From an uncultured Gammaproteobacteria bacterium (GTDB lineage: Bacteria; Patescibacteriota; Microgenomatia; UBA10105; UBA927), in NCBI GenBank assembly GCA_964349125.1, contig CAYGFH010000002.1, forward strand, positions 110,484-174,483: a stretch of DNA of 64,000 bases, written 5' to 3'. Made by a program: the position numbers and the translations under genes. This document shows positions 11,976-55,751 of the stretch, piece by piece. Position 1 is the first letter of the stretch, and each line of letters opens with the position of its first letter. Under the pieces are notes generated by a model. It saw nothing but the letters and a program-made list of their open reading frames with translations, was not told where the DNA came from and did no database searches.

Positions 11976-13823
11976 ATGCACACAAAGAGACTATCTATCC
12001 AAACATTTTTCACATGGGCGCCAATCGGCATTGTGTCTCTGATCCCATTATTCTTCCTCCCGAGTATTCAGGAATATTATGAGGTGGCAAAGTGGTATGC
12101 CCTTACATTCGTCACACTGCTGGTAAGTGGCGTGTGGACGATTCGATACCTGTGGACCAAACATCCTGTGAAAGTTGAGTTTTCCAATTATACAATAGGA
12201 CTCCTTTCAATGACCGTTGTATCATTCTTGAGTCTTTTTTTCTCCTCCACAAATAGAGTCGAAGCGCTACTTAATCCGTTAGGGCCAATTACATTTGTAT
12301 GCCTTGCCGTACTCACGCTCGTTCTCTCATCCATCCTTGATACACAAACCAAGAATCTCCTGCGGACCTATATATATGGAAGCGCAAGTATCCTTGGACT
12401 CATCGCTATATATCAGCAGATTGGAATAGCGAAGTCTATGTTTCCTGGTGTTACCTATCTCTCTGATCCACTCTGGACGCCGACAGGATCCAGTCTTGCC
12501 ACCATCACGATACTGCTTTCTGTGATTCCTCTGCTTGCCACCGATATTCAGGCACAATTGAAAGAAAAGCGGGAAATGGCCGCATCTCTGTATATTATGA
12601 TGGCGCTACTGATAACAGCAGGTCTTGGGGTCACTATATGGCAATTTTTCCCAAAGATAATAACTACCCTTCTCCCTCTTTCCACAGGATGGACCATAAT
12701 GCTGGATGTTCTCAAATCAGTAAAACAGGCGGCATTTGGCATCGGAGCAGAAAATTTTCTGACAGCATTTAACATGGGCCGGCCCGCATCGTACAACATG
12801 ACTCCTCTTTGGAATATACGATTTACGTCAAATGCCAGTTTCATGCTGCATAGTGTGACTATCTATGGACTATTAGGATTCGCAGCAGGAATTCTTATGC
12901 TCAGAGGGCTCATACCTAAACAGCTCAAACATGCAGAGTCCTTGAGCCTGATCATCTGCATCGTGGCGCTTCTTTTCACACCGCCATCGCTTGCAGTGCT
13001 GTTGACTATCACCATGATCACACTGGTTTCACCTCACGCGCACACTCGGGAGCTGCATCTGCAGCACCTCCACCGCACCTGGGTAAAAGCGATACTGGCG
13101 TTTCTTGTGTTTGGCATACTTGGGTATGGTGTGTTCCTGGTTGGCCGAGAGTATAGAGCACAGCGGGTATTTTACACATCACTTCAGAGGGCAAAAGAAA
13201 ATAATGGGACAGAGACATACAATCTGCAAATTAAGGCGATAGGACTTAACAAATATGTCAGCCTATACCATCTCATTTACAGTCAAACGAACCTAGCACT
13301 GGCAATTTCACTGACCAACGCCATGAATCAGCCTGATGCTGATCAAACGCCGGAGCAAAAAGGTAAAGATCAGCAATTAGTAGCGCAACTCATCCAGCAA
13401 AGTATTAGAGAGGCAAAACTCGCGACAACACTAAATCCGGTGAGCGTACTTGCCTGGGAAAATCTCGCACGCATATATAACCAGCTCATCGACGTAGCAC
13501 AGGGAGCAGATGCATGGACCATCGCATCATATGGCAAGGCCATAGAGCTTGATCCAAATAATCCGATCCTCAGGTTCGAGCTGGGATCAGTGGCCATGAA
13601 GCAGAAAAAATATCCTGAGGCAATCTCATATTTCCAAAAATCAGCAAGTCTCAAACCAAACTATGCAAATGCGTACTATAACCTGGCCTATGCCTACAAA
13701 GAGATGGGAGACGATGCAAAAGCTCTTGAGACATTGAAGCTGACAAAAACCCTCATAGATAAAACATCATCTGATTGGGAAAAAATTACCAAGGATATCG
13801 AATCCCTTGAGCAGAAGAAATAA
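11976..13823 (+). CDS. Wzy_C (O-antigen ligase / O-oligosaccharyltransferase family) polytopic membrane protein with C-terminal TPR repeats
   Basis: About 10 TM helices. The Wzy_C-like periplasmic loop 'GIGAENFLTAFNMG...NASFMLHSVTIYGLLGF' has a His plus a G-rich motif. The C-terminal ~150 aa are TPR-like (AWENLARIYN..., NYANAYYNLAYAYKEMGDDAKALE). Confidence 0.55.
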   Translation: MHTKRLSIQTFFTWAPIGIVSLIPLFFLPSIQEYYEVAKWYALTFVTLLVSGVWTIRYLWTKHPVKVEFSNYTIGLLSMTVVSFLSLFFSSTNRVEALLNPLGPITFVCLAVLTLVLSSILDTQTKNLLRTYIYGSASILGLIAIYQQIGIAKSMFPGVTYLSDPLWTPTGSSLATITILLSVIPLLATDIQAQLKEKREMAASLYIMMALLITAGLGVTIWQFFPKIITTLLPLSTGWTIMLDVLKSVKQAAFGIGAENFLTAFNMGRPASYNMTPLWNIRFTSNASFMLHSVTIYGLLGFAAGILMLRGLIPKQLKHAESLSLIICIVALLFTPPSLAVLLTITMITLVSPHAHTRELHLQHLHRTWVKAILAFLVFGILGYGVFLVGREYRAQRVFYTSLQRAKENNGTETYNLQIKAIGLNKYVSLYHLIYSQTNLALAISLTNAMNQPDADQTPEQKGKDQQLVAQLIQQSIREAKLATTLNPVSVLAWENLARIYNQLIDVAQGADAWTIASYGKAIELDPNNPILRFELGSVAMKQKKYPEAISYFQKSASLKPNYANAYYNLAYAYKEMGDDAKALETLKLTKTLIDKTSSDWEKITKDIESLEQKK

Positions 13824-13840
13824 GCCCAATACAGAAAGCC

Positions 13841-15478
13841 ATGCGTGTTATTCACAGACTCATCCATCTGATAACTGTTCCGATTATACTCTTACACCTG
13901 CTGTTTCTGGTTCAATGGGGAATTTTTATGGGAACTGTACTGCAGCCGTACACCATATCAGTTCCCGGACACACATACGTTCCGCTTCGCGGCCATCTCA
14001 CCTATACCTCACTTATCAGGCAAAGCAGAGATGGCGCATGGAAAACGCTCACAACTCATACAACACGTCCCACACCGGAACTGTATGTGCATACGTTTTT
14101 TGTATTTTTAGGCAAACTGGCGGCGATATTTCACATAGACCCGCCCACTATGTATATGGCTTCCCGGATGGCAGCAGCTGTGATTTTATTCTGGAGTACC
14201 TATTGGTTTGTTCACACACTGCTCCCAAAGCCCATCCATTCTCTTGCGTTGTTTTTTATCCTCGCGCTAGAGCCCGGACCAATGCTTTCTACTATCACCA
14301 CAAGTCTCACCACCTGGAGACCCGCGATATTCAGTTATTATCCGCAAATCGTGAGCCTCAGGCACTTCGGACTTCCCCACCATACGCTGGGAGAAGCGCT
14401 GGGCCTTATCTCAATCACCCTTTTGTTTTTGGCAGTAAAAAAGCCGACGTTCTCCAGACTGGTATGGCTTGGTATAGCAACCTTTCTGGGTGTAAATGTG
14501 CTACCGCCCTACTTTATCATCATCAGCATTTGCCTGCTTTTGCCGTGGGCACTATGGGCTCTCGTACATAGCTCGGTCGCACGGATTGTACTCCCCATGA
14601 GTATCAAAGTAGGGATTATCGCACTGGTATCCCTCTTTCTGAAAGCTCAGATGTCTCAGGGATATCCTGCGAAAGACTTTAATATAGACGAAAAGCGGTG
14701 GGTCACGAACGCGGATGTACTCGTGAGTTACGCCTCTACCCTCATACTGTATATCCCCTTTATCGCACTTCTATGGTCCAGATGCATCGGAGTATGGAGA
14801 ACGCTGGATACCTCAACGAAACGGCTGATTGCTCTTATGAGTGCATGGACTGTACTGCCCGCACTCCTTGTCCCACTATCCAGTTACGCCTGGTTTCCGC
14901 TTGCAAACTTCAGACTCATGGATGGGTATAATTACGCGCCTGCTGGTATACTCGCTGCTATCGGATTTTACTACGGTATGAAAATGATTCGAAACCATGC
15001 GGCGTCACAGTTTATCGCCGGGTTTCTGATGATGGGACTTGTACTGGCAACGGGATTTCTGTCGTATCACTATACGAAGCTTGTTCTCACCGAACAAAGC
15101 TACCCATGGACAAATGTGTATATACACAATGATCATTACAAGGCATTCAAATTCCTTGGTACGGTACCCAACATGAGTGGTCTGATGATCAGCAATCATT
15201 TTGGGGAAATCGCACCGGAATTTGCTCCAGTACGCGCATTTATTGGATCCACTCCTGGTTTTGTGGATTGGGATGAACGGTTTTGGATAGTCGGACGATT
15301 TTATAGTCAGTCATTCACAGAGAGCGATGCCGCTGCGTTGCTGGCACGGGAAGATATCTCGTATGTGTATTATGGTGATGCTGAGAAGAGCATTAACACA
15401 TCAGGCAGACCATTGTATCCGAATTTGTTGACGCCGGTATTTGAGACACCGGTCGTCACAGTATACAAAGTCAAATAG
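13841..15478 (+). CDS. Polytopic membrane protein, putative GT-C-fold glycosyltransferase (paralog family member)
   Basis: More than 10 TM helices with a C-terminal soluble domain ending ...ISYVYYGDAEKS...VVTVYKVK. This architecture is shared with 11 other ORFs in the window. Confidence 0.35.
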   Translation: MRVIHRLIHLITVPIILLHLLFLVQWGIFMGTVLQPYTISVPGHTYVPLRGHLTYTSLIRQSRDGAWKTLTTHTTRPTPELYVHTFFVFLGKLAAIFHIDPPTMYMASRMAAAVILFWSTYWFVHTLLPKPIHSLALFFILALEPGPMLSTITTSLTTWRPAIFSYYPQIVSLRHFGLPHHTLGEALGLISITLLFLAVKKPTFSRLVWLGIATFLGVNVLPPYFIIISICLLLPWALWALVHSSVARIVLPMSIKVGIIALVSLFLKAQMSQGYPAKDFNIDEKRWVTNADVLVSYASTLILYIPFIALLWSRCIGVWRTLDTSTKRLIALMSAWTVLPALLVPLSSYAWFPLANFRLMDGYNYAPAGILAAIGFYYGMKMIRNHAASQFIAGFLMMGLVLATGFLSYHYTKLVLTEQSYPWTNVYIHNDHYKAFKFLGTVPNMSGLMISNHFGEIAPEFAPVRAFIGSTPGFVDWDERFWIVGRFYSQSFTESDAAALLAREDISYVYYGDAEKSINTSGRPLYPNLLTPVFETPVVTVYKVK

Positions 15479-16684: not shown

Positions 16685-17617
16685 TTACTTCTTTGCAAAC
16701 ACAATCATATCATCCCAAGGGTTGATCGGGTTCATGATCTTAAAATGGTCAAAAAGTTTTCCAAGAGGTTTTAACATCCATGCTGCCCATGGGAAGTAAT
16801 CCCCTGCTCTTGTGAAAGCAAACGACAAAGGAAATGGTCGTGGAGTATCGGACAGAATTTCTATATGGGAAAATCCCGTTTTTTGCAGAAGTTTTCGCAT
16901 GGTATCGAAATCTAGAAGGACTACATGCTCCGGGTGTCTATACCCAAACCATCGTTTTCCCATGATTTTTTGCCATATTCCTCCCTGATTCGGAGTTGCT
17001 AAAACTAGCAAACCACCCTTTTTGAGTAATTTATATACTCTATTCATCATACGCAGAGGATCACGCTCGTGTTCAATAATCTGAAATGCACTGATCACAT
17101 CAAATGACGAATCCTTCAATTGTTTGACTGTATAGACAGTTCCCTGATATGCACGCAGGTTTTGTTTCAAGCAGTACGAGACAGCATCTCTGGAAATATC
17201 TATACCCTCTACCCTGAATCCTTCCTTTTTTGCTTCTTCCAACAAAACCCCCATAGCGCAGCCGATGTCAAGAAATCGCAATCCGCGAATCGTGAATCGC
17301 GAATCGTGAATCGCATCAATTTTTCGATGTTTTACGGTTAACGGTTTACGTTTAGCGATTAACGAAGATATTTCACCAACCTTCTTCTTAAAGTACGCGT
17401 GGTGAACAGCCAGTTGGTCCATATACGGATCAAAATGCTCAAGATCCTCATGATACAGGGATGCGATTTCCTTAGCTGTGGGCATCGGGACAACCTGCAC
17501 TAGGCCACAGTGCCTGCATTTTCCCATATTCCATCTTTTATGATGTGCAAATAGGATTGTAAACGAACCTGACCGGCACAGTACGCATTTCATAACCAGG
17601 TAATAATACCATACCAT
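16685..17617 (-). CDS. Class I SAM-dependent methyltransferase with N-terminal Cys4 zinc-ribbon
   Basis: Motif I LDIGCAMGVLLEE. N-terminal CVLC...CRHC. It contains an in-frame heptamer-repeat-encoded segment (KRKPLTVKHRKIDAIHDSRFTIRGLRF) immediately before motif I. Confidence 0.65.
   Translation of the reverse strand: MVWYYYLVMKCVLCRSGSFTILFAHHKRWNMGKCRHCGLVQVVPMPTAKEIASLYHEDLEHFDPYMDQLAVHHAYFKKKVGEISSLIAKRKPLTVKHRKIDAIHDSRFTIRGLRFLDIGCAMGVLLEEAKKEGFRVEGIDISRDAVSYCLKQNLRAYQGTVYTVKQLKDSSFDVISAFQIIEHERDPLRMMNRVYKLLKKGGLLVLATPNQGGIWQKIMGKRWFGYRHPEHVVLLDFDTMRKLLQKTGFSHIEILSDTPRPFPLSFAFTRAGDYFPWAAWMLKPLGKLFDHFKIMNPINPWDDMIVFAKK
17284..17364. repeat. Two heptamer arrays, (GCGAATC/GTGAATC)x4 and ACGGTTA-ACGGTTT-ACGTTTA-GCGATTA, inside the methyltransferase CDS
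   Basis: Read directly; in-frame coding. Confidence 0.8.
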
Positions 17618-17699: not shown

Positions 17700-19328
17700 T
17701 TGATATCGTATGGTATTATGAGGCGGATTGGTCGTTCTCTCATAGTGTTTTTGACCCTGGCAATCACGTTAATTGCTATAAATCTGCAGTATCGCACCCA
17801 TAAAACTGCGCTCACAATCCCCGGCACGCTCAATACGTACGCAATGGGTAACACAGAGGATTACCACCAGTACATGTATATCATCAAACGCGGGATGGAA
17901 GGGCATCTCCTCTATCACAACGCGTATTCGGAGGAAAGTATTCCGGATGTACTGCTGCAACCCTTCTACCATATCGCTGGCGCCATACTGGCACCACTTC
18001 GTTTGTCGCCGTACGATGTGTATTTTTTGCTTCATCTCGTGTCACTGAGCATCCTACTTTTTTATATATACCGTCTTATCTGCAGCGTACTCAAAACTGA
18101 AACCGGTAGGACTGTAGCGTTCTTGCTGTTTATTTCCGCCACCGGTTTCTGGTCACTTACGTCTGCATATCCCTTTACGGCCGTGAGACAGTATCTGCCG
18201 GACTATAATTTTGATTTATTTATCAAGTATCATGTCATGCAGCCACATCATGACATTGCCACGGCGCTCTATATCATTGCCATCATGGCACTCTCAGAGC
18301 GTGTGTACACGTGGAGACGCATAGTCGTGGGAGGATTCTCCGCCGCGTTACTCGGATTTATTCACCCGTACATCCAGTTATTTTTATTTTTCACTCTTAT
18401 TGTTGAACACATAGTCAGAATTTTTCTTATGAGACGGGAATATTGGAAAGAGGCATTTCGCTATGTAGCCCCAATCCTTATTGCCATACCCACAGCAGCC
18501 GTCACGTACTATACGCTCGTGCATGTACTTCAGTTTGAGATAGGTCTCAAAGGTATTGTCACCCATCTACCCAGGCAACAGACTTTTTGGTCATATACGG
18601 TGTCTCTGGGTCCACTGCTGTTCACTTCCCTATGTTGTGTGTTCCACATCAAAAAAATTGTAGAGATACCCATTCTCCGCTTTATGGCAATTTGGGCATA
18701 TCTTCCCATCATTCTGTTTTTTTTGCCAGATTATCAAATACCCATCAATACTTGGCGATTGTTTCAGACGTATCAGCATATACCAATGGCTATCCTCACC
18801 GCCTATTCACTGGTGTCTTGGGCAAAAACCTCCCGCCTGTTCGCCCTCAGTATCCCGGTGATTGCGGCAGGCTTCCTCATCTATGGGGGAGGTATGTATG
18901 CGTACGCCTATAAAGAAGCCACACAACCAGCCAATAGACTCGTCTGGACTGTAGACGTTCCGCATGTGGTCCTCTCGTTGTTTGAATACCTCAACACAGC
19001 GAGCGAGCCCGATAGTGTCGTGTTAGCTGGCGGCCAATTGTCAAACCTAATTCCTGAATTCACCCATAATCGTGTCATTATCGGACACAACGGGGATAAC
19101 CGTAATTTTCTTGCCAAACAGGCTGACATAAGCGGTTTTCTTATGGGAAATGTACCACTGTCTGAAGTCAGGAATTTTTTATCCCGATACCGTGTATCGT
19201 ACATTATCTTTGGTATAGATGCGCCATACTTCGCCAACACTCCCTATACAGCATTACCGTTTCTTAAGGAAGTGTACGTGGAGCCAAAAACAGGGTTTTC
19301 AGTGGTGCAGGTGCTCACTGACAAATGA
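17700..19328 (+). CDS. Polytopic membrane protein, putative GT-C-fold glycosyltransferase (paralog)
   Basis: About 12 TM helices. N-terminal loop motif 'EDYHQYMYIIKRGMEGH' resembles the D-Y-x2-Y-x3-I-x-QG motif of the other paralogs. C-terminal soluble domain ...VSYIIFGIDAPYF... Confidence 0.35.
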   Translation: MISYGIMRRIGRSLIVFLTLAITLIAINLQYRTHKTALTIPGTLNTYAMGNTEDYHQYMYIIKRGMEGHLLYHNAYSEESIPDVLLQPFYHIAGAILAPLRLSPYDVYFLLHLVSLSILLFYIYRLICSVLKTETGRTVAFLLFISATGFWSLTSAYPFTAVRQYLPDYNFDLFIKYHVMQPHHDIATALYIIAIMALSERVYTWRRIVVGGFSAALLGFIHPYIQLFLFFTLIVEHIVRIFLMRREYWKEAFRYVAPILIAIPTAAVTYYTLVHVLQFEIGLKGIVTHLPRQQTFWSYTVSLGPLLFTSLCCVFHIKKIVEIPILRFMAIWAYLPIILFFLPDYQIPINTWRLFQTYQHIPMAILTAYSLVSWAKTSRLFALSIPVIAAGFLIYGGGMYAYAYKEATQPANRLVWTVDVPHVVLSLFEYLNTASEPDSVVLAGGQLSNLIPEFTHNRVIIGHNGDNRNFLAKQADISGFLMGNVPLSEVRNFLSRYRVSYIIFGIDAPYFANTPYTALPFLKEVYVEPKTGFSVVQVLTDK

Positions 19329-20609
19329 CTCAATTGTCCGAACCACATACTTGAGCATTTGTTTGGTCAGTCCAGGGTGCACGCCAATCCAAAACGCATC
19401 ATTCATGAGTTTGTCTGAGCTTTTTAAATCCCCTACTTTGCGTATACGCGGATGATTCACGTACGCAGGGTGGCGGGTCAAATTTCCTCCAAAAATCGCA
19501 CGGGTCGCGATTTTTTTCTCATCCAGATAATTGACGAGATCGACTTTGGTAAACGGTGCCCCATCTCGTACAACCAGAGGGAACCCGAACCAGCTGGGAT
19601 TAGCGCCGGGCAATGCCTCCGGCAATATAAAGTATTGTTCTAATGTTTTAAAATATTGAAACAAATAGGCAAAATTATCTCGTCTGGCTTTGATAAACTT
19701 CGGTAGTTTTTTCATTTGCGCAAGCCCTATGGAAGCCTGGATATCTGTAAGCTTCAGGTTATAGCCGATTTGCGAATAGGTGTATTTGTGATCATACCCG
19801 TACGGCAACTCTCCCAATTTCCATTTGAATCGCATCCCGCAGGTGTTGTCTTTTCCCGTGTCGCACCAGCAGTCACGACCCCAATCCCGAAACTGTCGTA
19901 TTGCTTTATTTAGCCGTGAGTCGCTCGTCACTATAGCTCCTCCCTCACCCATCGTAATCTGATGAGCAGGATAGAAACTGAATGTTGCGATGTGTCCGAA
20001 TGTTCCTGCTAATCGGCCGTTATACTCCCCTCCCAATGCATCGCAGCAATCTTCAATAAACCACAGGTTATATTTGGCAACCAATGCCATGATTTCATCC
20101 ATAGGCATGAGGTTCCCCAGCGTATGGGCCATCATAATTACTTTTGTTTTGGGTGTTATCGCCTGCTCCAGATCCGCAGGATTCACATTTTTTGTGACGA
20201 TGTCATTATCCAAAAGCACCAGAGTGCAGTTGTTCTGGATCGTCGGGTTGATTGTTGTCGGGAAACCGGTTCCCACACTGATGACTTCATCTCCCGGCTG
20301 TAGAGCCCTATCACGAAAAACTTTGGATGTGAGAGCAGTGAGTGCCACTAAATTTGCGCTAGAGCCGGAATTTACCAGAGACACAAATTTCACACCAAGA
20401 AATTTTGAAAATTCTTTTTCAAATTCCAAAGCAAACCGCCCTTCAGTCCACCACCCATCTAAAACCGCCTCAATGCCGTATAAAAGCTCGCTCTCATCAA
20501 ACACTTTACCTGATACTGGCACGCTAGCTTCCCCTGCCACAAATTTCTTTTTGGCAAAGTTTTTTTTGTAGTGGGCAAGAATCTGTTTTTGCAGCGTTTT
20601 TGAAATCAT
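19299..20609 (-). CDS. ddhC: CDP-6-deoxy-D-glycero-L-threo-4-hexulose 3-dehydratase (E1; DegT-fold PMP/[2Fe-2S] enzyme)
   Basis: DegT/DnrJ fold, but the active-site Lys is replaced by His (FSFYPAHQITMGEGG versus FSFYPGKNLG in the 38202 paralog). It has a C-x-C-x7-C cluster (RDCWCDTGKDNTC). The 436-aa length matches RfbH/AscC. Confidence 0.75.
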   Translation of the reverse strand: MISKTLQKQILAHYKKNFAKKKFVAGEASVPVSGKVFDESELLYGIEAVLDGWWTEGRFALEFEKEFSKFLGVKFVSLVNSGSSANLVALTALTSKVFRDRALQPGDEVISVGTGFPTTINPTIQNNCTLVLLDNDIVTKNVNPADLEQAITPKTKVIMMAHTLGNLMPMDEIMALVAKYNLWFIEDCCDALGGEYNGRLAGTFGHIATFSFYPAHQITMGEGGAIVTSDSRLNKAIRQFRDWGRDCWCDTGKDNTCGMRFKWKLGELPYGYDHKYTYSQIGYNLKLTDIQASIGLAQMKKLPKFIKARRDNFAYLFQYFKTLEQYFILPEALPGANPSWFGFPLVVRDGAPFTKVDLVNYLDEKKIATRAIFGGNLTRHPAYVNHPRIRKVGDLKSSDKLMNDAFWIGVHPGLTKQMLKYVVRTIESFVSEHLHH

Positions 20610-23208: not shown

Positions 23209-23209
23209 T

Positions 23210-23854: not shown

Positions 23855-23864
23855 TCGTAACAGT

Positions 23865-25643: not shown

Positions 25644-25648
25644 ATGGA

Positions 25649-26692: not shown

Positions 26693-26705
26693 ATATACTA
26701 TTTTA

Positions 26706-31034: not shown

Positions 31035-31036
31035 AC

Positions 31037-39320: not shown

Positions 39321-39327
39321 CGACACT

Positions 39328-46694: not shown

Positions 46695-48488
46695 TCATCC
46701 ACACTCTATGGGAGGGACATCCACCACAGTATAGACGGTTGTCATCCCAAAGGTATTCCATGGCTGCAGAAATAAGTATCTAGAAACCGCATTCCCGGCT
46801 TGTCTTTCATCAGCGCTAAAAAATACCGCTTTTATGTTGTTGGTCTTCACGAGCATATAGGCCTCACACGGAGACATGGTTCCGGCAAAAAATGACCAGG
46901 AAACTGCCAGTTTCTTATCCAACTCAGGTGTGTAGACAACCTGCCCTACATAGACTGACCTATTCACATATGTCGGTATTGTCATACCGGCAAGAGACAG
47001 TGACATGATCGCTTCGCCCGGTTTTGTTATAGCCCCAAGTTCACGAATTGCACTCACATATTGGATGTCTGGATATTGGTAGTCACGGCCAAAATAGACA
47101 TGTGCTATCTGTTCACTCACTGTGGAAGGGTACCCGACAAATGTCAGCACAACCATAGCGGCAATCACAAGGATACGAAGCACCGAGGGAAGAATCTGAA
47201 GCGCGGTGGAAAACCCGACTGCCCCCAAAATTGACAAGGGAACCCAGACAGCTACCTGTAAAAAACGGATATTGGATATCGGGTGAGTTCTGATAACCTC
47301 AAATGGGCTAAACGGCATGAGCTTTGACAGTGGGATCATCACAATTGAGGTGACAATCCAAAGCAATAATATAAGAAAATTCGAAATCCTAAACTCGAAA
47401 TTCGAAATATGTTTGATACCGTTATATGTTGTACCTTTTGTTTGTTTTGAATTTGTTTCGAGTTTCACGCTTCGTGCTTCGAATTTAAGTGATACGAATA
47501 TGGCAATCATGCCAATGATTGCAAAAAATACCACTGGCCCCAATGCCAACAGATATTCAGGTACGGATAATGCAAATGACCACCCTTCAAATGCACGTGC
47601 CAGATTCCAAGGAAAAATCGCGGATACACTGTTTATAATACCGAGTCCGCTTCCGGCTCCCACGAGTGAAGCAAAACCAATTTGGATCATCCTCTGTGAC
47701 CGGATGATCACCATAATGAGTGGGATGATAAGCAGTATCTGTATTGCGCTGGGAGGGTGGACAAATGCAGCAATCCACGCGGCGACTGCCACCCTCACGA
47801 GCCACCGTTTTCCCGTCCTTGATTCCCTATGCCACCAGGTGGAGAACGCCCATTTCGTCCGCTCGGGAACTATTTTTTTAGGAGCCTGGAAACGGACGTA
47901 TTCCAAAACCGATATAAACACAGAGACCATCATGATATGCCCCATTGTGAAGTGCGGGATAAAAGCCGCTCGAACTACGGGATCAAGCTCACTCCACCAG
48001 GTCATGTAGCCTGTGACAACCGGGGCTCCCAATACCTCGACCACACGGGGAAAACTGGCGCTAAACAAGGAAAATGCGAGAGCCAGTATCCTCTGCCATT
48101 TTTCCCGGATGGAGAGTGTTATGAGTCTGTATATCGCGATACACCAGATAATTCCGAGCACATAGCGCGAAGCGTGGTATGCAATATGCGCATCTGATAC
48201 CCCGATACTTCGTGCCACCATGCCTATAGCCAGATAGAAAAAATGGATCACACTCCCTTCGTGGGTCTCCGTGGCAAACGGATTGAATACTGTTATACTC
48301 CCGTCGACTCCCTGCCGCACCACAGACACGTAAAATGAATAATCACTCAGTGAATTGTGTATAGGGATGTACGTGTGGCCGGGATCAATCTGCGCGAGCT
48401 TCCCTACCCATACGGCGATATTAAGACACAGTGCTATGGCGCAAAGAAGGATAACGATGCCGTATTCACTCTTAGTAGCGTCCTTCAT
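46695..48488 (-). CDS. Polytopic membrane protein, putative GT-C-fold glycosyltransferase (paralog)
   Basis: 'LSDYSFYVSVVRQGVDGS' loop motif. It contains heptamer-repeat-encoded ISNFEFRISNF. C-terminus ...IKAVFFSADE...TTVYTVVD. Confidence 0.35.
   Translation of the reverse strand: MKDATKSEYGIVILLCAIALCLNIAVWVGKLAQIDPGHTYIPIHNSLSDYSFYVSVVRQGVDGSITVFNPFATETHEGSVIHFFYLAIGMVARSIGVSDAHIAYHASRYVLGIIWCIAIYRLITLSIREKWQRILALAFSLFSASFPRVVEVLGAPVVTGYMTWWSELDPVVRAAFIPHFTMGHIMMVSVFISVLEYVRFQAPKKIVPERTKWAFSTWWHRESRTGKRWLVRVAVAAWIAAFVHPPSAIQILLIIPLIMVIIRSQRMIQIGFASLVGAGSGLGIINSVSAIFPWNLARAFEGWSFALSVPEYLLALGPVVFFAIIGMIAIFVSLKFEARSVKLETNSKQTKGTTYNGIKHISNFEFRISNFLILLLWIVTSIVMIPLSKLMPFSPFEVIRTHPISNIRFLQVAVWVPLSILGAVGFSTALQILPSVLRILVIAAMVVLTFVGYPSTVSEQIAHVYFGRDYQYPDIQYVSAIRELGAITKPGEAIMSLSLAGMTIPTYVNRSVYVGQVVYTPELDKKLAVSWSFFAGTMSPCEAYMLVKTNNIKAVFFSADERQAGNAVSRYLFLQPWNTFGMTTVYTVVDVPPIECG
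47370..47480. repeat. TTCGAAA-type heptamer repeats inside CDS 46695..48488
   Basis: ttcgaaatcctaaactcgaaattcgaaat ... ttcgagtttcacgcttcgtgcttcgaattt. Confidence 0.6.
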
Positions 48489-48600: not shown

Positions 48601-49371
48601 ATGAACGATGTAGACGAGCTTCCGGATCTGCCCAATCTCAAAAACACAGGCCTTATCGCAGGGGTAATTTGCGTGGGGCTTATCTTGTTTATCATTCTGC
48701 AACACAATTTGTCATTTCAAAAAACCTCACAAACAATAATCCCGGCTGGAAATACCTATCTTGGCCCCCCAAAGACAGAGACTCCGGCTCCCACCGCAGA
48801 AACGGTAGTAGCAACAAATACACCAGACACTACCCCACTTCCCACCGAAAAAGGCCGGACGAATACCAAAGCAGTCGTGACAATGAATGCACAGGGCAAA
48901 CTCACAGCTCCCGCAGATGTTCCCATGACCGTTATGAAAGGGAAAAGATATCCATACTCATTTTCTGTTCCGTCCACCCTCAAGCTAACGACGTTTCCCA
49001 ATGATCAATTTGATATTTACGCAATCGTGTGGGAAAACCGCCCGCCGGACCAGAACGTACTCGTTGGAGTTGATAATTTATCACGTACAGATGCACTAAA
49101 ACAATATATATCACTTTCCAAACGGTCATATGTGGAGACATGGTGGAAGCAGTTTGGAGGACTCAAGGGAGTCGCATCCATAGTGGAATTCAAAAACAGC
49201 AAAGGACTCAAGGGGTATCGTGCGAAATATTTAAACACCAGTAATCAGTCTCCAAACGAGGATGTTTTTTTTGAGACACCCGACCCCAAGTTCGTCATTC
49301 ATCTGGCAAGCGGCATTCTAGACAGCGCACTGTTTAACAGTATCGTTGATACCGTTTCGTGGAGTAAGTAA
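48601..49371 (+). CDS. Hypothetical membrane-anchored protein with Pro/Thr-rich linker
   Basis: TM helix LIAGVICVGLILFIIL, then a PTAETVVATNTPDTTPLPTEKG linker and a ~150-aa domain. Confidence 0.35.
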   Translation: MNDVDELPDLPNLKNTGLIAGVICVGLILFIILQHNLSFQKTSQTIIPAGNTYLGPPKTETPAPTAETVVATNTPDTTPLPTEKGRTNTKAVVTMNAQGKLTAPADVPMTVMKGKRYPYSFSVPSTLKLTTFPNDQFDIYAIVWENRPPDQNVLVGVDNLSRTDALKQYISLSKRSYVETWWKQFGGLKGVASIVEFKNSKGLKGYRAKYLNTSNQSPNEDVFFETPDPKFVIHLASGILDSALFNSIVDTVSWSK

Positions 49372-49451: not shown

Positions 49452-51047
49452 ATGAAGCGTGCAGTCATTAGTATCATCCTCATATTCACCATACTCAATA
49501 TCAGCAGTTTTTTTATTATGCGTGCTCGGGCACCAAAATATACCGTATACACGGGCGCGGTGCACTATCCGCCGGATTATCTGTACTACTTGTCCTATAT
49601 CGCTCAGGGACGTGATCATTGGGTGCTTGGAGAGAATCTTAAATCCGCTGAGACAACACAGGGAGCGCTGGTAAATTGGTTCTATGTACTGGGAGGACGC
49701 TTCGGCAACAGTATCGGAATGTCAGACATTATCACCTATCAACTACTCGTCATTATGGCAAGTATTTGGTATTTGTCTGCGTCCTATTTTTTATTTGCGC
49801 TCTGTTTCCCAAAGCAACCCATGACTCGGCTCATCGCATGGGTGCTGTTTTTGCTCTCAAATGCGTTTCCAAAAATCACTCATACGTCCCAGGGATGGGA
49901 TTTTGGATTTTACTACCCGTTTAACAATCTGGGACATCCCTTCGTACGGCTTTCAAATGTACCGCACCATACACTTATTCAGGGGTCTATTATGGCTGCA
50001 TTTGCATTCACTCTCTATTACTGGAAAACATACGCGCCAAACGCACTGGGCATGCTCATTCTGCTTGGTATGATACTCGGAACAATGCAGCCACTTCAGT
50101 GGGTGTTTACTGGTAGTGTAATTGGCGTGTATGGGCTTGTACTCTGCTACGCTATATATACAAAACAGTGGCAACACCCATATGAATTTCTCCGGCCGCT
50201 TTTGCCCGCTGTCTCATTATGTATCATAGGATTTCCCGGCGCACTCTATATACAGCACCTGTATAGTGGCCCTCTCTACCAATACATGCTTGCCTGGGAA
50301 AAAAATCAGCATGTGTTCATCCCTATTATCGACTTTATTCGGTTGCATGGCCCTGTGGTACTCATAGGGTTACTTGGCATTCCGATCACATTCCCAAAGA
50401 CCCCACGACATATACATATAGTATGGGTGTATTCAGGACTCGCGCTTGCTATTTTTTTCTCTCCTATCCCGCAGTGGATTGGAGTACTTAATCTTAGATT
50501 TTTGTCCGTGCTGCCAATATTCGTTGCTTCTTATGCAACTGCCGAACTCATTAGAAGGATAACGAAACGGGCATCGCAACAGCTTCGCTATCCCCTTATG
50601 TGGACCATCGCATTTCTTATCATCGCCATTACCATACCTGTCACATATGCACATGTTGCATTGGGTCGACCGAATGCTAAAGGCGAGGATGTACTCACCT
50701 ATCTGCCTATTGGTGCCTTCCAGATATATGAAACAGCAAAATACAGTATTGACCCACAGGAAACGACGTTGGTTACACCTCTGTTTACACAAAGCTTTCC
50801 AGCATTTACCGGTCGACATGTCTATGAGGCGGATGTATTTGGAACCATCGATTTTGCCCGCAAACACGCTGAGGCGCAGCGTTTTTGGAGCTCCATTGAC
50901 CCGCCAGATGTGCGTGCCAATTGGCTTCGCAAACAGGATATTTCCTATGTATTCACCTATGCCTGGACCCCTATTTCAGATATGCAAAACCTGACAGTGG
51001 TGTCTGCAAACGATTATGCTATCTTGTATAAAGTGCGGCACAATTAA
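49452..51047 (+). CDS. Polytopic membrane protein, putative GT-C-fold glycosyltransferase (paralog)
   Basis: 'PPDYLYYLSYIAQGRDHW' loop motif. C-terminus ...ISYVFTYAWTP...AILYKVRHN. Confidence 0.35.
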   Translation: MKRAVISIILIFTILNISSFFIMRARAPKYTVYTGAVHYPPDYLYYLSYIAQGRDHWVLGENLKSAETTQGALVNWFYVLGGRFGNSIGMSDIITYQLLVIMASIWYLSASYFLFALCFPKQPMTRLIAWVLFLLSNAFPKITHTSQGWDFGFYYPFNNLGHPFVRLSNVPHHTLIQGSIMAAFAFTLYYWKTYAPNALGMLILLGMILGTMQPLQWVFTGSVIGVYGLVLCYAIYTKQWQHPYEFLRPLLPAVSLCIIGFPGALYIQHLYSGPLYQYMLAWEKNQHVFIPIIDFIRLHGPVVLIGLLGIPITFPKTPRHIHIVWVYSGLALAIFFSPIPQWIGVLNLRFLSVLPIFVASYATAELIRRITKRASQQLRYPLMWTIAFLIIAITIPVTYAHVALGRPNAKGEDVLTYLPIGAFQIYETAKYSIDPQETTLVTPLFTQSFPAFTGRHVYEADVFGTIDFARKHAEAQRFWSSIDPPDVRANWLRKQDISYVFTYAWTPISDMQNLTVVSANDYAILYKVRHN

Positions 51048-51170: not shown

Positions 51171-53126
51171 GTGGTATCAATGTGGTGTTATATTCTTATG
51201 AAACGAGTCTTTACATACCTTGCTGATCCATCTCATATACACATCATTTTAGCGGTGGGATTGCTGTTTCGTCTCGTACTTATACCGAGCCCCGGGTTTG
51301 AAGCGGACATTTCATTCTGGAAATCATGGGGTCTTGCTGTGCGTGATTACGGCATAGTGAAGGGATTACCACTTACGAATTTCAACTACCCTACTCCTTT
51401 CGGATACATGCTTGGTTTCATGGCGCATGTGTATAGCCTTTTCTCTGATCCGCATAATTTTGATCAGTTCTGGAAAAATACAAATCTCCTCTTCCTCACT
51501 GTTGCAAAAGCTCCATCAATTTTAGCTGATTTTGGTATTTTTACTATTATCCTTTGGGTTGGGAAAAATGCAAAACGGCTCAATTTTCCGCAACTTTCGC
51601 TCTCAATCTATTATCTTTTGGCAGCCATATATATACTTTCTCCCCTCCCGATGTTTGATGGTGCGCTTTGGGGACAGGTTGATAGTGTGGGGGTATTTCT
51701 GTTTCTGCTTGCCAATGTGTTCGTATGGAGAAAACAGCCACTTTTGGGAGGAATTTTTTACATGGTTTCCATGATGACCAAGCTGCAGAACCTTATCTAC
51801 GGACCGGCATTTTTTCTCTTTGTCTGGCAATATCTGGGTTATACGGGACTTGTGCGGGCAGTCGCCGGGAGCGTAGCCACATTTATCGGACTGAACATTG
51901 AGTTTATCCTTGCTAGGCAAATGTACCGCGTTGCGGGAGACCTGACAGGCAATTATGACTATTTCCCATGGATGTCGCTTAATGCCTATAACGTCTGGTG
52001 GATAGTAGCCAAGGCGCACGGGATGCAGATTTCAGATAAACTGTCAGTCATAGGTATTGCAAGCGCAAAGACAGTCGGATTATTTCTGTTTTCCTCCACA
52101 TACCTTTTGGCCTGTTTACAAATGCTTAGAGGTCGATTCCTTGGTGTCGTTGCGAGCGAAGCGCGGCAATCTCATCATAAGATTGCTTCGACCGATGGTA
52201 CTCATGGGTCTCGCAATGACATTGATGAAAGCTCAATCATCAATAAAGAACTTATCTTCCGCTACCTGAGCGCACTTATCATTGTGTGTGCCGGGTTCTT
52301 CCTATTCCAAACTCAATCGCACGACAGATATGCATTCCCAATCGCTGTATTTGCCCTTCTTTGGGCTCCCTTTTACATCAGCGGGTTACGTGTTGCGATA
52401 GACAAAGTACGCATACAACAATTTATATTGTTTTACGGAATTTTTACCGTTCTATTTTTCTACAACATCCATAACGCCATGATTGCAAACTACCCAAAAA
52501 ATGGCATCCCGCTTCTCGGTTCACTCAATATCCCTCCCCTGACCATCGCCACGTCGTATGGGCAAATAGGGTTATTCCTTGCCTTTCTGTACACTATCAG
52601 AACATACATAACGAACCAAATTTTCATAATTGCGACGAGTGTTTGGATATTACTTGTCGTCATGGCAAACAAGGCACTCATTCTGGGTAAGCCCATACCC
52701 ATCACAGACCTCACACCAATTACCAGCATCACGGGCTACGGCAGGCGTCAGGAAAACATGCCGGTGAATGCGAGTTTCGGTATAAAAAACTGGGGATTTT
52801 TGTCGGTACAATATGCGTACTACAAGCGAGGTATAGGAACACACGCGCCGAGCCGTGAGGTATATGATATAAATCGTAAGTTTCGCACACTTTCTACAGA
52901 CATGGGAATCGACACCAACGGCGGACCACAGGGAAGTGTGATATTTTCAGTGTATGGGGACGGGAAACAACTGTACCAATCAGAACTTATCAAGCGGTAC
53001 GAATTCCCTAGGCACGCCACCATAGATATAACAGGTGTAAAGACACTGGAACTAAGCATTTCAGATGGCGGAAACGGAAATTTTGATGATCATGCAAATT
53101 GGTTAAACACGTACCTGATACCGTAA
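51171..53126 (+). CDS. Polytopic membrane protein (GT-C-like paralog) with C-terminal NPCBM/NEW2 carbohydrate-binding domain
   Basis: The C-terminal 140 aa 'FGIKNWGFLSVQYAYYKRGIGTHAPSREVYDI...GIDTNGGPQGSVIFSVYGDGKQLYQS...LELSISDGGNGNFDDHANWLNTYL' match the NPCBM signature. The gene contains an in-frame 75-bp palindromic element at 52146..52220. Confidence 0.45.
   Translation: MVSMWCYILMKRVFTYLADPSHIHIILAVGLLFRLVLIPSPGFEADISFWKSWGLAVRDYGIVKGLPLTNFNYPTPFGYMLGFMAHVYSLFSDPHNFDQFWKNTNLLFLTVAKAPSILADFGIFTIILWVGKNAKRLNFPQLSLSIYYLLAAIYILSPLPMFDGALWGQVDSVGVFLFLLANVFVWRKQPLLGGIFYMVSMMTKLQNLIYGPAFFLFVWQYLGYTGLVRAVAGSVATFIGLNIEFILARQMYRVAGDLTGNYDYFPWMSLNAYNVWWIVAKAHGMQISDKLSVIGIASAKTVGLFLFSSTYLLACLQMLRGRFLGVVASEARQSHHKIASTDGTHGSRNDIDESSIINKELIFRYLSALIIVCAGFFLFQTQSHDRYAFPIAVFALLWAPFYISGLRVAIDKVRIQQFILFYGIFTVLFFYNIHNAMIANYPKNGIPLLGSLNIPPLTIATSYGQIGLFLAFLYTIRTYITNQIFIIATSVWILLVVMANKALILGKPIPITDLTPITSITGYGRRQENMPVNASFGIKNWGFLSVQYAYYKRGIGTHAPSREVYDINRKFRTLSTDMGIDTNGGPQGSVIFSVYGDGKQLYQSELIKRYEFPRHATIDITGVKTLELSISDGGNGNFDDHANWLNTYLIP
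52146..52220. mobile_element. MITE-like palindromic element copy A (75 bp) with terminal inverted repeats GTCGTTGCGAG / CTCGCAATGAC and internal hairpin GCAATCT-n7-AGATTGC, inserted in-frame in a CDS
   Basis: Direct alignment with copy B. It is translated as ...VVASEARQSHHKIASTDGTHGSRND. Confidence 0.6.
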
Positions 53127-53139: not shown

Positions 53140-53231
53140 GTCATTGCGAGGAGTCCACGACAGTTCGTCGTGACGACGCGGCAATCTCTTTCGTATAGAT
53201 TGCTTCGCCGTTGGAACGGACTCGCAATGAC
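53140..53231. mobile_element. MITE-like palindromic element copy B (92 bp), intergenic
   Basis: TIRs GTCATTGCGAGGAGTCC / GGACTCGCAATGAC. It shares the core GCGGCAATCTC..AGATTGCTTCG with copy A. Confidence 0.6.
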
Positions 53232-53243
53232 AAAGAAGAATAT

Positions 53244-55751
53244 ATGAAAAAACTGACGATTGATAAAATACTAGGACTGCTGATGCTCATTTTTTCCATC
53301 GGCTTCAACTTGTTTCTCTACAGGTTGGAGCCCACCGCGACAATCGACCCAAACGACAATACATTCCAGTTTGCTCTCGTAGATAGGACAAACACTATAT
53401 GGGATTTTGCTGTCAAAAAGTGTTCATCTTCAATATCCGGAATTTTGACCTATCCGATCTGTCATTTTTCGTACTTGGCTGACCATTGGGTGAACAATTG
53501 GGCAGAAGGATATAACCTCCCCTACTACTACTCACATATCCCGCAGATTGCCATAGTTGGAAGCTACCGATTGATTCACTGGATTACTTCAATGTTCAAT
53601 GTTCAATTTTCAATTTTTCAATACTATCATGTAGTGATTTATTTGCTTCTGTGTTTTACTCCACTGCCTGTATTTCTTGCCATCCGTGTGATTGGATTGT
53701 CTTGGCTGACAGCAGGCATAGGCGCGCTCTTAGCTACACATTTATCTACGGACGGATTGTACGGCCTTGACCCGTCTTCGTACCTTTGGCGGGGATACGG
53801 ATTATCCAGTCAGCTGTTTGCGATGATATGGCTTCCTCTGGCATTGGCCTATTCGTATAAATTTTTCGTTAACCGTGAACCGTTAACCGCTAACCGCGAT
53901 TGGAAACACTTATTTTCGATTAACGATTTACGATTAGCGATTAGCGCTATTGTATTTACTACCCTCACCACCGCCGGTCATTTGGGTATCGGTATGATTA
54001 CCATGCTCTCTATTGGCTTTTTGGCTATCTCAAACCCGATTTCTAGATTCATGGAGCAGTCATCTCGTAAGGAAATCCTGCAGTCTCTTTTTGAATCGCT
54101 TATCCGATTATTCCTGATCGCAGGAGTGTCGATTTTCCTCCTGAGCTACTGGATTATCCCAACCTTTATACATGGCAACTTCCACAATATGTCCTTCTGG
54201 GATCCGGTGTGGAAATTTGACTCGTACGGGGCTATGGAAACAATCATCAGATTGTTCAATGGAGATCTATTGGACTTCGGGCGCGTCCCCATTCTGACCG
54301 CGCTAACATTTGCAGGGATAGTGGCTGGATTTGGTCTGACTATCAACAGGGCTGTGAAACGGGCTGAAGATGCTGACGGACAAGCAGATGGCATATATAA
54401 AACGCTCTACCCTTTCTCGTTTCTTTTCTTATTCTGGATAGTATTTTACTTCGGCCGTACCACGTGGGGTGGACTGATTGATCTCATTCCCGGCATGAAG
54501 GATTTTCATTTGTCCCGTTTCATAGTCGGTGTGCATGTAGCCTCTATGCTGTTAATACCGATCGGATTTTCTTGGATCGCTGAACAGTTGATTCAATACA
54601 TACAACGATCCAAGAATGTTCAATTTTCAATTTTCAATTATCGATTACCGTCTCACTTGCTTATTCGCGTATTTGTGTATATGTCTATTGGAATATTGAT
54701 TATTCCTCCTGTCTATCGGTGGACACTCACCTATAATGAGCTCAACGACCGACTGATCGTCCAGGCAAACGGCAACCATGCAAAGGTAACAGAAGATGAG
54801 CAGGCACTATTTACAAAGCTGCGAAGCCTACCTCCCGGGCGCATATTTGCGGGGCGTGGTGGAGGGTTCGGGAAACGGTTCGAGGTCGCGGAAACACCAT
54901 ACTACATGCATCTGTCCACGTACGGCCTTCCTACCACATTATGGCTCCCGGAAACATGGTCTATGAACTCCGATACAGAACAGTATTTCAGTGAGGATCA
55001 GGAAAAAGATTATGACTTATACAATATCAGATATGTGGCGGCTCCAGCAGATGAGCCGGCACGTCCATTTTGGACACTGATAGACGAACGCCCCACATGG
55101 AAACTGTATAAAGTGAAAACAACCGGATACTTCACCACAGGAGTACGACCGGCAACCATTTCTATCGGAAAACAATCATTTATGTCATTGGTTCACCTGT
55201 GGATTCAGTCAGATATGCATAAAAATAGATTGTTTCCCGAAATGACCTTTGATACAACGTATCCCAAACCATTCGGACTTCCAAATTTCAAAATGCTAGA
55301 TGAGGTTACGTACATGACCCCAGATGGAAAAAAGCACAACCTATGGGCTGAACCTCCGGTCTATCTCCCCTCGGGCGTGAAATCACTTGACGAGTTTGCA
55401 AAATTAGAAAACCAGAAGCAGGGAGACATGGAGCTCCTTGGCCCTGAGAAAACCGACACAGATATGGTATTTTCCACGACGGTGAAAGTCGGTAAAAATT
55501 GTACGGAGTGCATGGTTATCCTAAAACACACATTCCATCCCGGATGGAGGGCATTCATTGACGGAAAAGCGGCAAAAACGATGATAGTATTCCCCTTCTA
55601 TATCGGAGTTCATGTTCCAGAAGGAACACATACGATAACACTTTCTTATGAACCATCAAAGCTAAAAATAGCACTTCTTACAGCGGCTATCGTCGCCTTG
55701 GCAGGGTTCATTTGGTTAGCCCGTCTACACGCTCCAAAAAATCAAACCTAA
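53244..55751 (+). CDS. Large (about 835 aa) polytopic membrane protein, GT-C-like paralog with extended C-terminal extracytoplasmic domain and terminal TM
   Basis: I moved the start to MKKLTIDKILGLLMLIF because the track start at 53211 lies inside the MITE-like element. It contains heptamer-repeat-encoded NVQFSIFQY / NVQFSIFNY and LTANRDW...INDLRLAIS segments. Confidence 0.35.
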   Translation: MKKLTIDKILGLLMLIFSIGFNLFLYRLEPTATIDPNDNTFQFALVDRTNTIWDFAVKKCSSSISGILTYPICHFSYLADHWVNNWAEGYNLPYYYSHIPQIAIVGSYRLIHWITSMFNVQFSIFQYYHVVIYLLLCFTPLPVFLAIRVIGLSWLTAGIGALLATHLSTDGLYGLDPSSYLWRGYGLSSQLFAMIWLPLALAYSYKFFVNREPLTANRDWKHLFSINDLRLAISAIVFTTLTTAGHLGIGMITMLSIGFLAISNPISRFMEQSSRKEILQSLFESLIRLFLIAGVSIFLLSYWIIPTFIHGNFHNMSFWDPVWKFDSYGAMETIIRLFNGDLLDFGRVPILTALTFAGIVAGFGLTINRAVKRAEDADGQADGIYKTLYPFSFLFLFWIVFYFGRTTWGGLIDLIPGMKDFHLSRFIVGVHVASMLLIPIGFSWIAEQLIQYIQRSKNVQFSIFNYRLPSHLLIRVFVYMSIGILIIPPVYRWTLTYNELNDRLIVQANGNHAKVTEDEQALFTKLRSLPPGRIFAGRGGGFGKRFEVAETPYYMHLSTYGLPTTLWLPETWSMNSDTEQYFSEDQEKDYDLYNIRYVAAPADEPARPFWTLIDERPTWKLYKVKTTGYFTTGVRPATISIGKQSFMSLVHLWIQSDMHKNRLFPEMTFDTTYPKPFGLPNFKMLDEVTYMTPDGKKHNLWAEPPVYLPSGVKSLDEFAKLENQKQGDMELLGPEKTDTDMVFSTTVKVGKNCTECMVILKHTFHPGWRAFIDGKAAKTMIVFPFYIGVHVPEGTHTITLSYEPSKLKIALLTAAIVALAGFIWLARLHAPKNQT
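53867..53947. repeat. Heptamer arrays CGTTAAC-CGTGAAC-CGTTAAC-CGCTAAC-CGCGATT and CGATTAA-CGATTTA-CGATTAG-CGATTAG inside a CDS
   Basis: Read directly. Confidence 0.8.

Follow-up and report, generated by a model that had tools for sequence, protein, structure and literature searches.

A probable envelope-glycan locus with eleven predicted GT-C-type membrane glycosyltransferases in a Microgenomates bacterium

The window, i.e. the whole stretch of DNA analysed here, comprises 64,000 nucleotides of contig CAYGFH010000002.1. Between its positions 11976 and 55751, a stretch of 44 kb, the listing of open reading frames (ORFs) and their translation reveal twelve polytopic membrane ORFs of 431–846 amino acids (aa), interleaved with genes for family 2 glycosyltransferases (GT2s), sugar-nucleotide enzymes and three small membrane proteins (Table 1; genes are named by their first coordinate). 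Eleven of the polytopic proteins are predicted GT-C-type membrane glycosyltransferases, which fall into five sequence-unrelated families: six proteins in family A, two in family B and one each in C, D and E. All annotated close homologs of the window proteins come from Candidatus Gottesmanbacteria and other Patescibacteria metagenome-assembled genomes, and the host is a Microgenomates (Gottesmanbacteria-type) bacterium of the Candidate Phyla Radiation (CPR).

Five families of predicted membrane glycosyltransferases

A preliminary description of this DNA had already located all twelve membrane ORFs correctly, apart from the last one, which starts at 53211 with a TTG codon and not at 53244. The interleaving with GT2 genes and the overlaps of 4 bp that it pointed out, as in the series 42128, 40836, 40318, agree with the coordinates, and 31526 and 33073 overlap likewise. 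Its central proposal, a massive expansion of twelve paralogs, did not survive. All-versus-all BLASTP connects only six of the proteins (13841, 17700, 34031, 44518, 46695 and 49452; family A) and, separately, 31526 with 42853 (family B), while 40836 (C), 51171 (D), 53211 (E) and 11976 (W) are singletons. When the family alignments were compared with each other as profiles by hhalign, the probability was at most 15 % for every pair, which rules out a single superfamily of all twelve proteins by this comparison. The N-terminal loop motif thought to be common to the twelve is matched strictly only by 44518 and 46695 and, in relaxed form, only by the six family A proteins; the C-terminal ISYV[YF][YF] motif is real but restricted to the same family. 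The shared motif therefore defines a six-member and not a twelve-member family. That the large proteins are GT-C-like has held, by direct fold evidence for family A and by weak Pfam matches and scans of homologs for B, C, D and E. A recent, genome-specific expansion is ruled out as well, since the six family A paralogs share only 20–27 % pairwise identity (alignment A1) as compared with 40–75 % for orthologs elsewhere; orthologs in other genomes being far more similar than the paralogs within the window, the latter are ancient.

Family A is missing from the curated catalogues. Neither its window members nor the 56 aligned homologs match any Pfam or NCBIfam model, Pfam STT3 included, and the full-length profile retrieved nothing from the PDB sequences, hence no oligosaccharyltransferase (OST). 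When 1.84 billion cluster representatives (clusters at 50 % identity) were searched with the family profile, 6,131 of them matched at E <= 1e-3 and 1,967 at E <= 1e-30, which amounts to a gap of about 6,100 clusters for which there is no Pfam or NCBIfam model.

The most conserved member, 44518, hereafter called A4, was modelled with AlphaFold2 from the alignment of the 56 sequences (pLDDT 92.2, pTM 0.92). The predicted structure has a GT-C fold with multiple transmembrane (TM) helices, juxtamembrane helices in the first external loop and a C-terminal alpha/beta “central core” domain as in STT3, AglB and PglB. In a Foldseek search of the PDB, the top four matches are STT3/Stt3-containing OST complexes, the best being 9n9j_I, an OST-A translocon entry (E 1.2e-10). 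AglB and PglB come close behind, with DPY19, AftA and ArnT interleaved among or after them; transporters appear only at E > 0.1 and a TM-score of about 0.1. The preliminary description had named a transporter or other non-GT-C fold as the outcome that would overturn it; in family A, for which the comparison was made, a GT-C fold was found instead.

Sequence comparison at the level of the C-terminal domain points the same way. A profile confined to this domain (A9), run against the whole PDB, gave 3vu0 (E 0.0039) followed by STT3A three times (about 0.3) as the top four matches. In the corresponding alignment the family A segment vvLSgktaGNyiP lies opposite vLSWWDYGnwi of the OSTs, and the isYVf strand (ISYVYYG) coincides with the OST strand V-x-Y-V-L-V. 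In OSTs, the enzymes of protein N-glycosylation in archaea and eukaryotes, the WWDYG motif follows the last TM helix and binds the +2 Ser/Thr of the N-x-S/T sequon; a WWDYG-like pattern (W[WFY]D[YWF]G) is absent from all 56 family A members. We conclude that family A is a diverged GT-C of the STT3/AglB/PglB type in which the motif for sequon reading has been lost and which lies outside GT66 as currently defined. Conserved across the six paralogs are G93, P186-H187, W360, R381, P521 and F548, of which P186-H187, W360 and R381 are invariant. The loop-1 aspartate D53 is present in five of them (it is lacking in 13841) and nearly invariant in the 56 homologs, and five of the six also have an acidic residue at position 66, in the “QGxDG” turn. 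D53 and P186-H187, where a TM helix begins, could be the counterparts of the metal-binding DxD/DxH residues of OSTs. We infer that family A enzymes transfer a glycosyl group from a polyprenyl-(P)P-linked donor. Because AftA and DPY19 score nearly like STT3, the comparison does not decide between a polyprenyl-phosphate (Pren-P) monosaccharide and a polyprenyl-pyrophosphate (Pren-PP) oligosaccharide as donor.

Families B, C, D and E are assigned less firmly than A, and from sequence only, namely from Pfam matches below threshold and from scans of homologs. In family B, 42853 reaches 24.6 bits against PMT_2 (PF13231; cutoff 26.1). No match to this model was found in 31526 or in 40836 of family C; 14 of 35 homologs of the two families do match it, with a best E of 9e-12. 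The FDxDE sequence in loop 1 of family B (D82, D84 and E85 in the numbering of 42853, the first sequence of the family B alignment, which is also labelled A4) is invariant in 24 sequences, as are R136, R184, D186 and K228. Family C has only seven relatives of 40836, one of which (P0126) carries PF13231. Family D combines a match to GT87 (PF09594; E 1.2e-3, 19 bits, cutoff 25), seen in five of 15 homologs with a best E of 5e-5, with a C-terminal NPCBM domain (E 8.5e-32) that is present in all 15 homologs and matches the CBM51 structures 2vmg and 7js4 in the PDB. Lectin modules fused to a GT-C have precedents in EmbC, AftD and the GT136 enzyme ORF12, where they bind the polysaccharide acceptor (PMC11127046). 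The YfhO match (PF09586) of family E covers only the last 48 residues of 53211 (24.7 bits, cutoff 28.5) and recurs in six of 19 homologs (best 1e-8). TM helices 483–501 and 818–836 of this protein enclose an extracytoplasmic region of about 316 aa, and a large extracellular region between the last two TM helices is a described feature of YfhO (PMC5836110). Searches of PDB sequences returned nothing with the family B and E profiles and only the carbohydrate-binding module (CBM) with that of family D.

The twelfth polytopic protein, 11976, had been called a Wzy_C protein. Pfam finds no Wzy_C domain (PF04932) in it and only one in ten homologs (E 4.5e-5), so that a clear Wzy_C/PilO-type O-oligosaccharyltransferase is unsupported. 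Membership of 11976 in the glycosylation system is uncertain. Its gene adjoins pilin genes both in the window and in one related locus (L036). In the window these are three tandem type IV pilin-like genes with an N_methyl motif (9910–11633, minus strand), divergent from 11976.

Gene order and partner genes

Scanning genomes for the family A motifs gave 80 loci; counts are given here over 81 loci. All loci with informative names come from Gottesman-, Woese- or Roizmanbacteria or from other Microgenomates/Patescibacteria. Many third-party assembly (TPA_asm) records among them (L002–L080) are titled “uncultured Gammaproteobacteria bacterium”, which is probably a placeholder or mislabel. At least two family A genes lie within 21.7 kb or less in 61 loci, and at least three in 42. 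The density of paralogs, earlier considered exceptional, is typical: counting the five families, there are 0.25 GT-C genes per kb in the window as against a median of 0.23 in the 81 related loci, which were gathered around A4 orthologs and hence stand for this type of Microgenomates locus and not for whole-genome averages.

Part of the locus is conserved. The order A4, then p256-(A6)-D-E, with A4 divergent from p256, recurs in Gottesman-, Woese- and Roizmanbacteria, and p256 is found in 56 of the 81 loci, each time adjoining the A4 gene, family D in 53, family E in 49 and the short GT2s in 50–54 (54 for the type of 35921). What differs from genome to genome is the set of additional A, B and C paralogs, GT2s and sugar operons. 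The p256 protein itself matches nothing in Pfam or NCBIfam. Its homologs share a juxtamembrane motif, LQHNLxFQKTxTIxLPAGxTYLG. As a Ser/Thr-rich glycosylation substrate p256 was discarded, the Ser/Thr/Pro fraction of its linker across homologs being 0.22 compared to a background of 0.18, a weak enrichment.

Four GT2s are recognised by Pfam (15482, 27626, 35921 and 42128), one fewer than first counted. For three of them the description as polyprenol-phosphate-sugar-synthase-like stands; for 15482 a role on lipid phosphate is not established. The clearest case is 27626, which aligns over its full length (residues 6–308) with Synechocystis GtrB (5ekp, E 5e-61) and also matches ArnC (1e-27) and the NCBIfam model of PgfS (2e-66); it belongs to one operon with the GT-C 31526. 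Both 35921 and 42128 are soluble proteins that resemble the catalytic domain of ArnC and align over their full length with PpgS and dolichyl-phosphate hexose transferases, and 42128 is adjacent to the GT-C gene 40836.

The sugar-nucleotide genes are organised around two operons. The minus-strand operon running from 34031 to 22021 comprises a family A gene, the RmlD-like gene, a family B gene, two small membrane proteins, the CDP-sugar genes and the GtrB-like gene, and ends with a DmpF/DmpG-like pair, an acetolactate synthase (ALS)/YerE-like enzyme dependent on thiamine pyrophosphate (TPP), a GNAT and a DegT gene. Beyond it on the same strand lies the RfbH-like gene, which with 641 bits against NCBIfam PRK15407 (cutoff 423) is predicted to be a bona fide RfbH. 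The DmpG-like 4-hydroxy-2-oxovalerate aldolase and the acetylating acetaldehyde dehydrogenase (23865–27590, minus strand) both exceed their NCBIfam cutoffs, and together with the TPP enzyme they form a set unusual for CPR metabolism; the proximity of these three enzymes to RfbF/G/H-like genes is a hint that the product may be a dideoxy sugar, either branched or C-acylated. Between the operon and the RfbH-like gene, a plus-strand orphan ORF of 381 aa (20678–21823) interrupts the sugar genes at a dip in GC content (0.389). It has neither a Pfam match nor a homolog in the related loci and may be an insertion. In the plus-strand operon from 35921 to 40317, a short GT2 is coupled to four genes whose combination suggests the synthesis of an amino or acetamido sugar.

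The small membrane proteins, three in number (30525, 31037 and 40318), are distantly related paralogs, and each is encoded directly after a GT-C gene. They had been taken for 4-TM equivalents of GtrA or ArnEF. The model of 40318 predicts 3 (possibly 4) TM helices followed by a C-terminal, PadR/MarR-like winged helix, a fold that its paralogs 30525 and 31037 presumably share, and Pfam detects no GtrA or SMR domain; GtrA/ArnEF-like flippases are thus ruled out. With only 17 homologs in 5.8 billion proteins and a presence in 2–3 of the 81 related loci, the family is rare, and its members could be membrane-tethered regulators or adaptors. A search for another recurrent small multi-TM family in the 81 loci found none, nor was a flippase-like gene found in positions 1–8100 of the window.

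Table 1. Annotated features of the locus in window coordinates
Position	Strand	Assignment	Evidence and remarks
11976..13823	+	Polytopic, ~10 TM, C-terminal TPR domain; O-antigen-ligase-like at best	Pfam
13841..15478	+	Family A paralog	BLASTP, alignment A1; without loop-1 Asp (D53); orthologs in L023 and L036
15482..16516	-	GT2, 3 C-terminal TM helices, EpsD/MftF-like	Glycos_transf_2 E 2e-24; NCBIfam
16685..17617	-	S-adenosylmethionine-dependent methyltransferase	Methyltransf_23 E 3e-23; homologs often directly after A4 ortholog in related loci
17700..19328	+	Family A paralog	BLASTP, alignment
19299..20609	-	RfbH-like CDP-6-deoxy-4-hexulose 3-dehydrase (3,6-dideoxyhexose pathway)
22021..27590	-	DegT aminotransferase, GNAT, ALS/YerE-like TPP enzyme, DmpG-like aldolase, acetylating acetaldehyde dehydrogenase
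27626..28570	-	GtrB/PgfS/ArnC-type polyprenyl-phosphate glycosyltransferase	314 aa, 2 C-terminal TM helices
28587..30553	-	CDP-glucose 4,6-dehydratase-like and glucose-1-phosphate cytidylyltransferase-like	Both below equivalog cutoffs
30525..31522	-	Two adjacent small membrane proteins (30525, 31037)	169 and 161 aa; 3-4 TM and C-terminal winged helix
31526..33076	-	Family B GT-C (PMT_2/ArnT-like), FDxDE in loop 1	BLAST to 42853; PMT_2 in homologs
33073..34011	-	RmlD-like sugar reductase
34031..35701	-	Family A paralog	BLASTP, alignment; ortholog in L002
35921..36622	+	Short GT2, DPM1/PpgS/ArnC-like; candidate polyprenyl-phosphate sugar synthase	233 aa
36718..40317	+	UDP-GlcNAc 3-dehydrogenase-like, hexapeptide acetyltransferase, DegT aminotransferase, 4,6-dehydratase/epimerase
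40318..40839	-	Small membrane protein, 3 TM and winged helix	Modelled
40836..42131	-	Family C, GT-C candidate (remote PMT_2-like)	431 aa, ~10 TM, without soluble C-terminal domain
42128..42823	-	Short GT2, PpgS/DPM1/ArnC-like	231 aa; overlaps next gene by 4 bp
42853..44475	+	Family B GT-C (PMT_2-like)	PMT_2 E 3.3e-5
44518..46350	-	Family A core member A4, STT3/AglB-like GT-C without WWDYG	Most conserved member; modelled
46695..48488	-	Family A paralog	BLASTP, alignment
48601..49371	+	p256, single-pass	TM helix, short Thr/Pro-rich linker, ~150-aa extracytoplasmic domain
49452..51047	+	Family A paralog (A6 position in conserved order p256-(A6)-D-E)	BLASTP, alignment
51171..53126	+	Family D, GT87-like GT-C with C-terminal NPCBM/CBM51 module
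53211..55751	+	Family E, YfhO-like GT-C	YfhO (PF09586) E 9.5e-6

Several further ORFs in the window deserve mention. A doubtful gene for 115 aa (46355–46702, minus strand), which overlaps 46695 by 8 bp, has no TM helix or Pfam match and has a homolog only in a contig of the same organism (L001). Downstream of the locus, a minus-strand ORF of 2,643 aa (56007–63938) in a stretch of lower GC content (0.385–0.41) lacks both a Pfam match and a homolog among the 81 related loci. Upstream (120–9881, plus strand), a C-terminal tail of some 45 aa (GDLNxDGxVDIFDYNxLxxNFG) recurs in similar form in six secreted proteins, of which one is a beta-helix protein, one a metallophosphatase and one has an F5/8 type C domain; Pfam Dockerin_1 matches weakly in three of the six (E 6e-4 to 0.04), and a membrane-anchored protein on the opposite strand (7153–8127, minus) has a weak Cohesin match (E 0.0018). 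The dockerin-like tails and the cohesin-like protein may be parts of a display system resembling a cellulosome, here in a CPR bacterium.

A possible glycan assembly pathway and its alternatives

Taken together, we consider it probable, at roughly 70 %, that this is a conserved envelope-glycan locus dedicated to lipid-linked extracytoplasmic glycan assembly. This frame, which the preliminary description had also adopted, is upheld because the GT-Cs sit together with GtrB/ArnC/PpgS-like GT2s and sugar-nucleotide operons. Starting from the folds, family relations, synteny and GT2 identities described above, we infer which donors and acceptor are used, how the sugars are flipped and in what order the enzymes act, as follows. 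Cytoplasmic enzymes would produce unusual nucleotide sugars by two routes, one leading to a CDP-3,6-dideoxy or branched hexose and the other to an amino or acetamido sugar. GT2s of the GtrB/PpgS/DPM1 type would load these sugars onto polyprenyl phosphate and, once they have been flipped, the eleven GT-C-fold enzymes would transfer them outside the cell. The core formed by A4, p256, D, E and a short GT2 would build or handle a conserved surface glycopolymer, to which the variable A, B and C paralogs, GT2s and sugar operons would add lineage-specific residues. The CBM51 module on D and the YfhO-like character of E favour a glycan or a teichoic-acid-like molecule as the putative acceptor.

A number of points weigh against this interpretation. 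The host is uncultured and the function of every member is read from sequences and models. There are four GT2s for eleven GT-Cs, and many donors must therefore be shared or come from elsewhere. No flippase gene was identified; two-gene GT-A/GT-C modules of Bacillus are likewise known without a co-encoded flippase (PMC5836110), and the gap is for this reason no argument against lipid-linked donors. The GT-C status of families B to E derives from the sub-threshold matches and homolog scans listed above, and the reference to one locus type also limits what can be drawn from the density. As for the kinship of family A to STT3, it is carried by the fold and by one marginal domain-level sequence match, with AftA and DPY19 scoring nearly as well as STT3, and 13841, which lacks the loop-1 aspartate, may be inactive.

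The preliminary description had explained the locus by iterated Gtr/Arn cassettes, each with a GT2 synthase, a small 4-TM flippase and a serotype-type GT-C, which would decorate one surface polymer in a combinatorial manner. The adjacency of GT2 and GT-C genes, the 4-bp overlaps in the series 42128-40836-40318, the true GtrB/ArnC homolog 27626 and the position of 30525 and 31037 after the GT-C 31526, reminiscent of ArnE/ArnF, all agree with such an arrangement. However, the small proteins with their winged helix, lack of a GtrA or SMR match and extreme rarity do not fill the place of the flippase, and no other small multi-TM family recurs in the related loci to replace them. Moreover, only three or four GT2s serve eleven GT-Cs, and the core GT-Cs are kept across phyla-level groups, unlike the variable serotype-converting Gtr enzymes. 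We therefore regard iterated cassettes as improbable.

Protein glycosylation, with family A acting as OST-like enzymes on non-sequon acceptors and the PMT_2-like proteins as O-glycosyltransferases, has more in its favour, though we still find it rather unlikely. The neighbouring type IV pilins, the dockerin-tailed proteins, p256 or an S-layer would be the targets; the combinatorial glycosylation of pilins or dockerin proteins that the preliminary description put forward is speculative. Family A has its best relatives, by structure as well as by sequence, in STT3, AglB and PglB; the nearest counterpart of 27626 is PgfS, from the Pgf system of S. mutans, a protein O-glycosylation system that uses GT-C enzymes (PMC11092751); pilin genes and the polytopic TPR protein lie directly upstream; and the juxtamembrane linker of p256 is rich in Thr and Pro. 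Against this, the sequon-reading WWDYG is absent from family A, pilins are adjacent in only 6 of the 81 loci, the enrichment in the p256 linker is weak, and the CBM51 on D and the YfhO-like E point to acceptors of the glycan or teichoic-acid type (PMC11127046, PMC5836110). That family A is not enzymatic at all, consisting of GT-C-fold scaffolds or transport proteins comparable to the non-catalytic PIG-U/GAB1 or of some other membrane transporter, we hold to be highly improbable. One source does name a family A homolog “MFS family permease”, and 13841 lacks the loop-1 Asp, but the Foldseek comparison places transporters far down the list, the loop-1 acidic residues and the invariant His and Arg are kept across paralogs that are only 20 % identical, and family A genes are consistently co-located with lipid-sugar synthase genes.

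Within the interpretation as a lipid-linked glycan assembly locus, a bolder proposal concerns the history of family A. It might be a hitherto unrecognised, CPR-wide branch of the STT3/AglB/PglB lineage that lost sequon reading and radiated into 3–6 specialised paralogs per genome, a tentative idea against which the odds still stand somewhat. If true, the locus would be the Patescibacteria counterpart of mycobacterial arabinogalactan and lipoarabinomannan (LAM) assembly, and family A an evolutionary bridge between oligosaccharyltransferases and the GT-Cs that build polysaccharides.

CPR bacteria (Patescibacteria) represent a large share of bacterial diversity and live attached to other cells; to our knowledge, their surface chemistry is essentially unknown. 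Here an organism with a small genome devotes more than 40 kb to at least eleven predicted extracytoplasmic glycosyltransferases. Because of this investment and the conservation of the locus, surface glycans appear to be central to the biology of these organisms, possibly for attachment to host cells, phage defence or envelope integrity. Family A is also relevant to the relationship between oligosaccharyltransferases and other GT-C enzymes; for its own kinship to STT3/AglB without WWDYG, D53, H187 and R381 provide concrete residues. In the literature on CPR, Patescibacteria, Microgenomates or Gottesmanbacteria in connection with GT-C, oligosaccharyltransferase or mannosyltransferase, no description of family A or of the cluster was found. 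The principle of lipid-linked extracytoplasmic glycosylation is known; what is new is family A, its kinship to OSTs without WWDYG and a conserved multi-family GT-C locus in CPR bacteria.

Comparison with known glycosylation systems

With the GT66 enzymes STT3, AglB and PglB, family A shares the C-terminal V-x-Y-V strand, an acidic residue in the first external loop and an invariant Arg in the second half of the TM domain. It differs from them by G-x-x-x-G-N at the position of WWDYG and by the lack of significant full-length sequence similarity. In addition, there are six family A paralogs in this locus in place of a single enzyme, and they are encoded beside Pren-P-sugar synthases and not beside an assembly line for Pren-PP-oligosaccharides.

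The Gtr and Arn systems have in common with the locus a GtrB/ArnC homolog followed by an extracytoplasmic GT-C and, in the case of the arn operon, genes for a sugar aminotransferase and a dehydratase in one operon. However, GtrA, ArnE/F or MATE flippases are lacking here, the small membrane proteins being of the winged-helix type, and the GT-Cs are conserved core genes, in contrast to the phage-borne serotype converters of Gtr systems. The modules of Gram-positive bacteria (CsbB-YfhO, GtlA-GtlB, PgfS-PgfM1/M2 and GtrB-PgtC2) are closer in that they too pair a GT2 with a GT-C without a co-encoded flippase. Furthermore, 53211 is built like YfhO, PgfS and GtrB are the proteins nearest to 27626, and the cell is of the monoderm type. 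The locus nevertheless contains far more GT-Cs than these modules, its dominant family A is neither YfhO- nor PMT_2-like, and the YfhO and PMT_2 matches found here are below the curated thresholds.

The mycobacterial set of AftA-D, EmbA-C, PimE and Rv3779 with PpgS likewise comprises many clustered GT-Cs of several families, which act outside the membrane with polyprenyl-phosphate sugar donors, as proposed here. A carbohydrate-binding module is attached to one of the GT-Cs, as it is in Emb and AftD, and the short GT2s are PpgS-like. The differences are that the locus has no genes of the UbiA/DprE type for decaprenyl-phospho-arabinose, that its proteins show no sequence-level homology to Emb or Aft, and that it belongs to another phylum with another envelope. 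By analogy, the locus would seem to resemble the assembly of mycobacterial arabinan and mannan by multiple GT-Cs and the CsbB/YfhO decoration of teichoic acid more than it resembles the Gtr cassettes.

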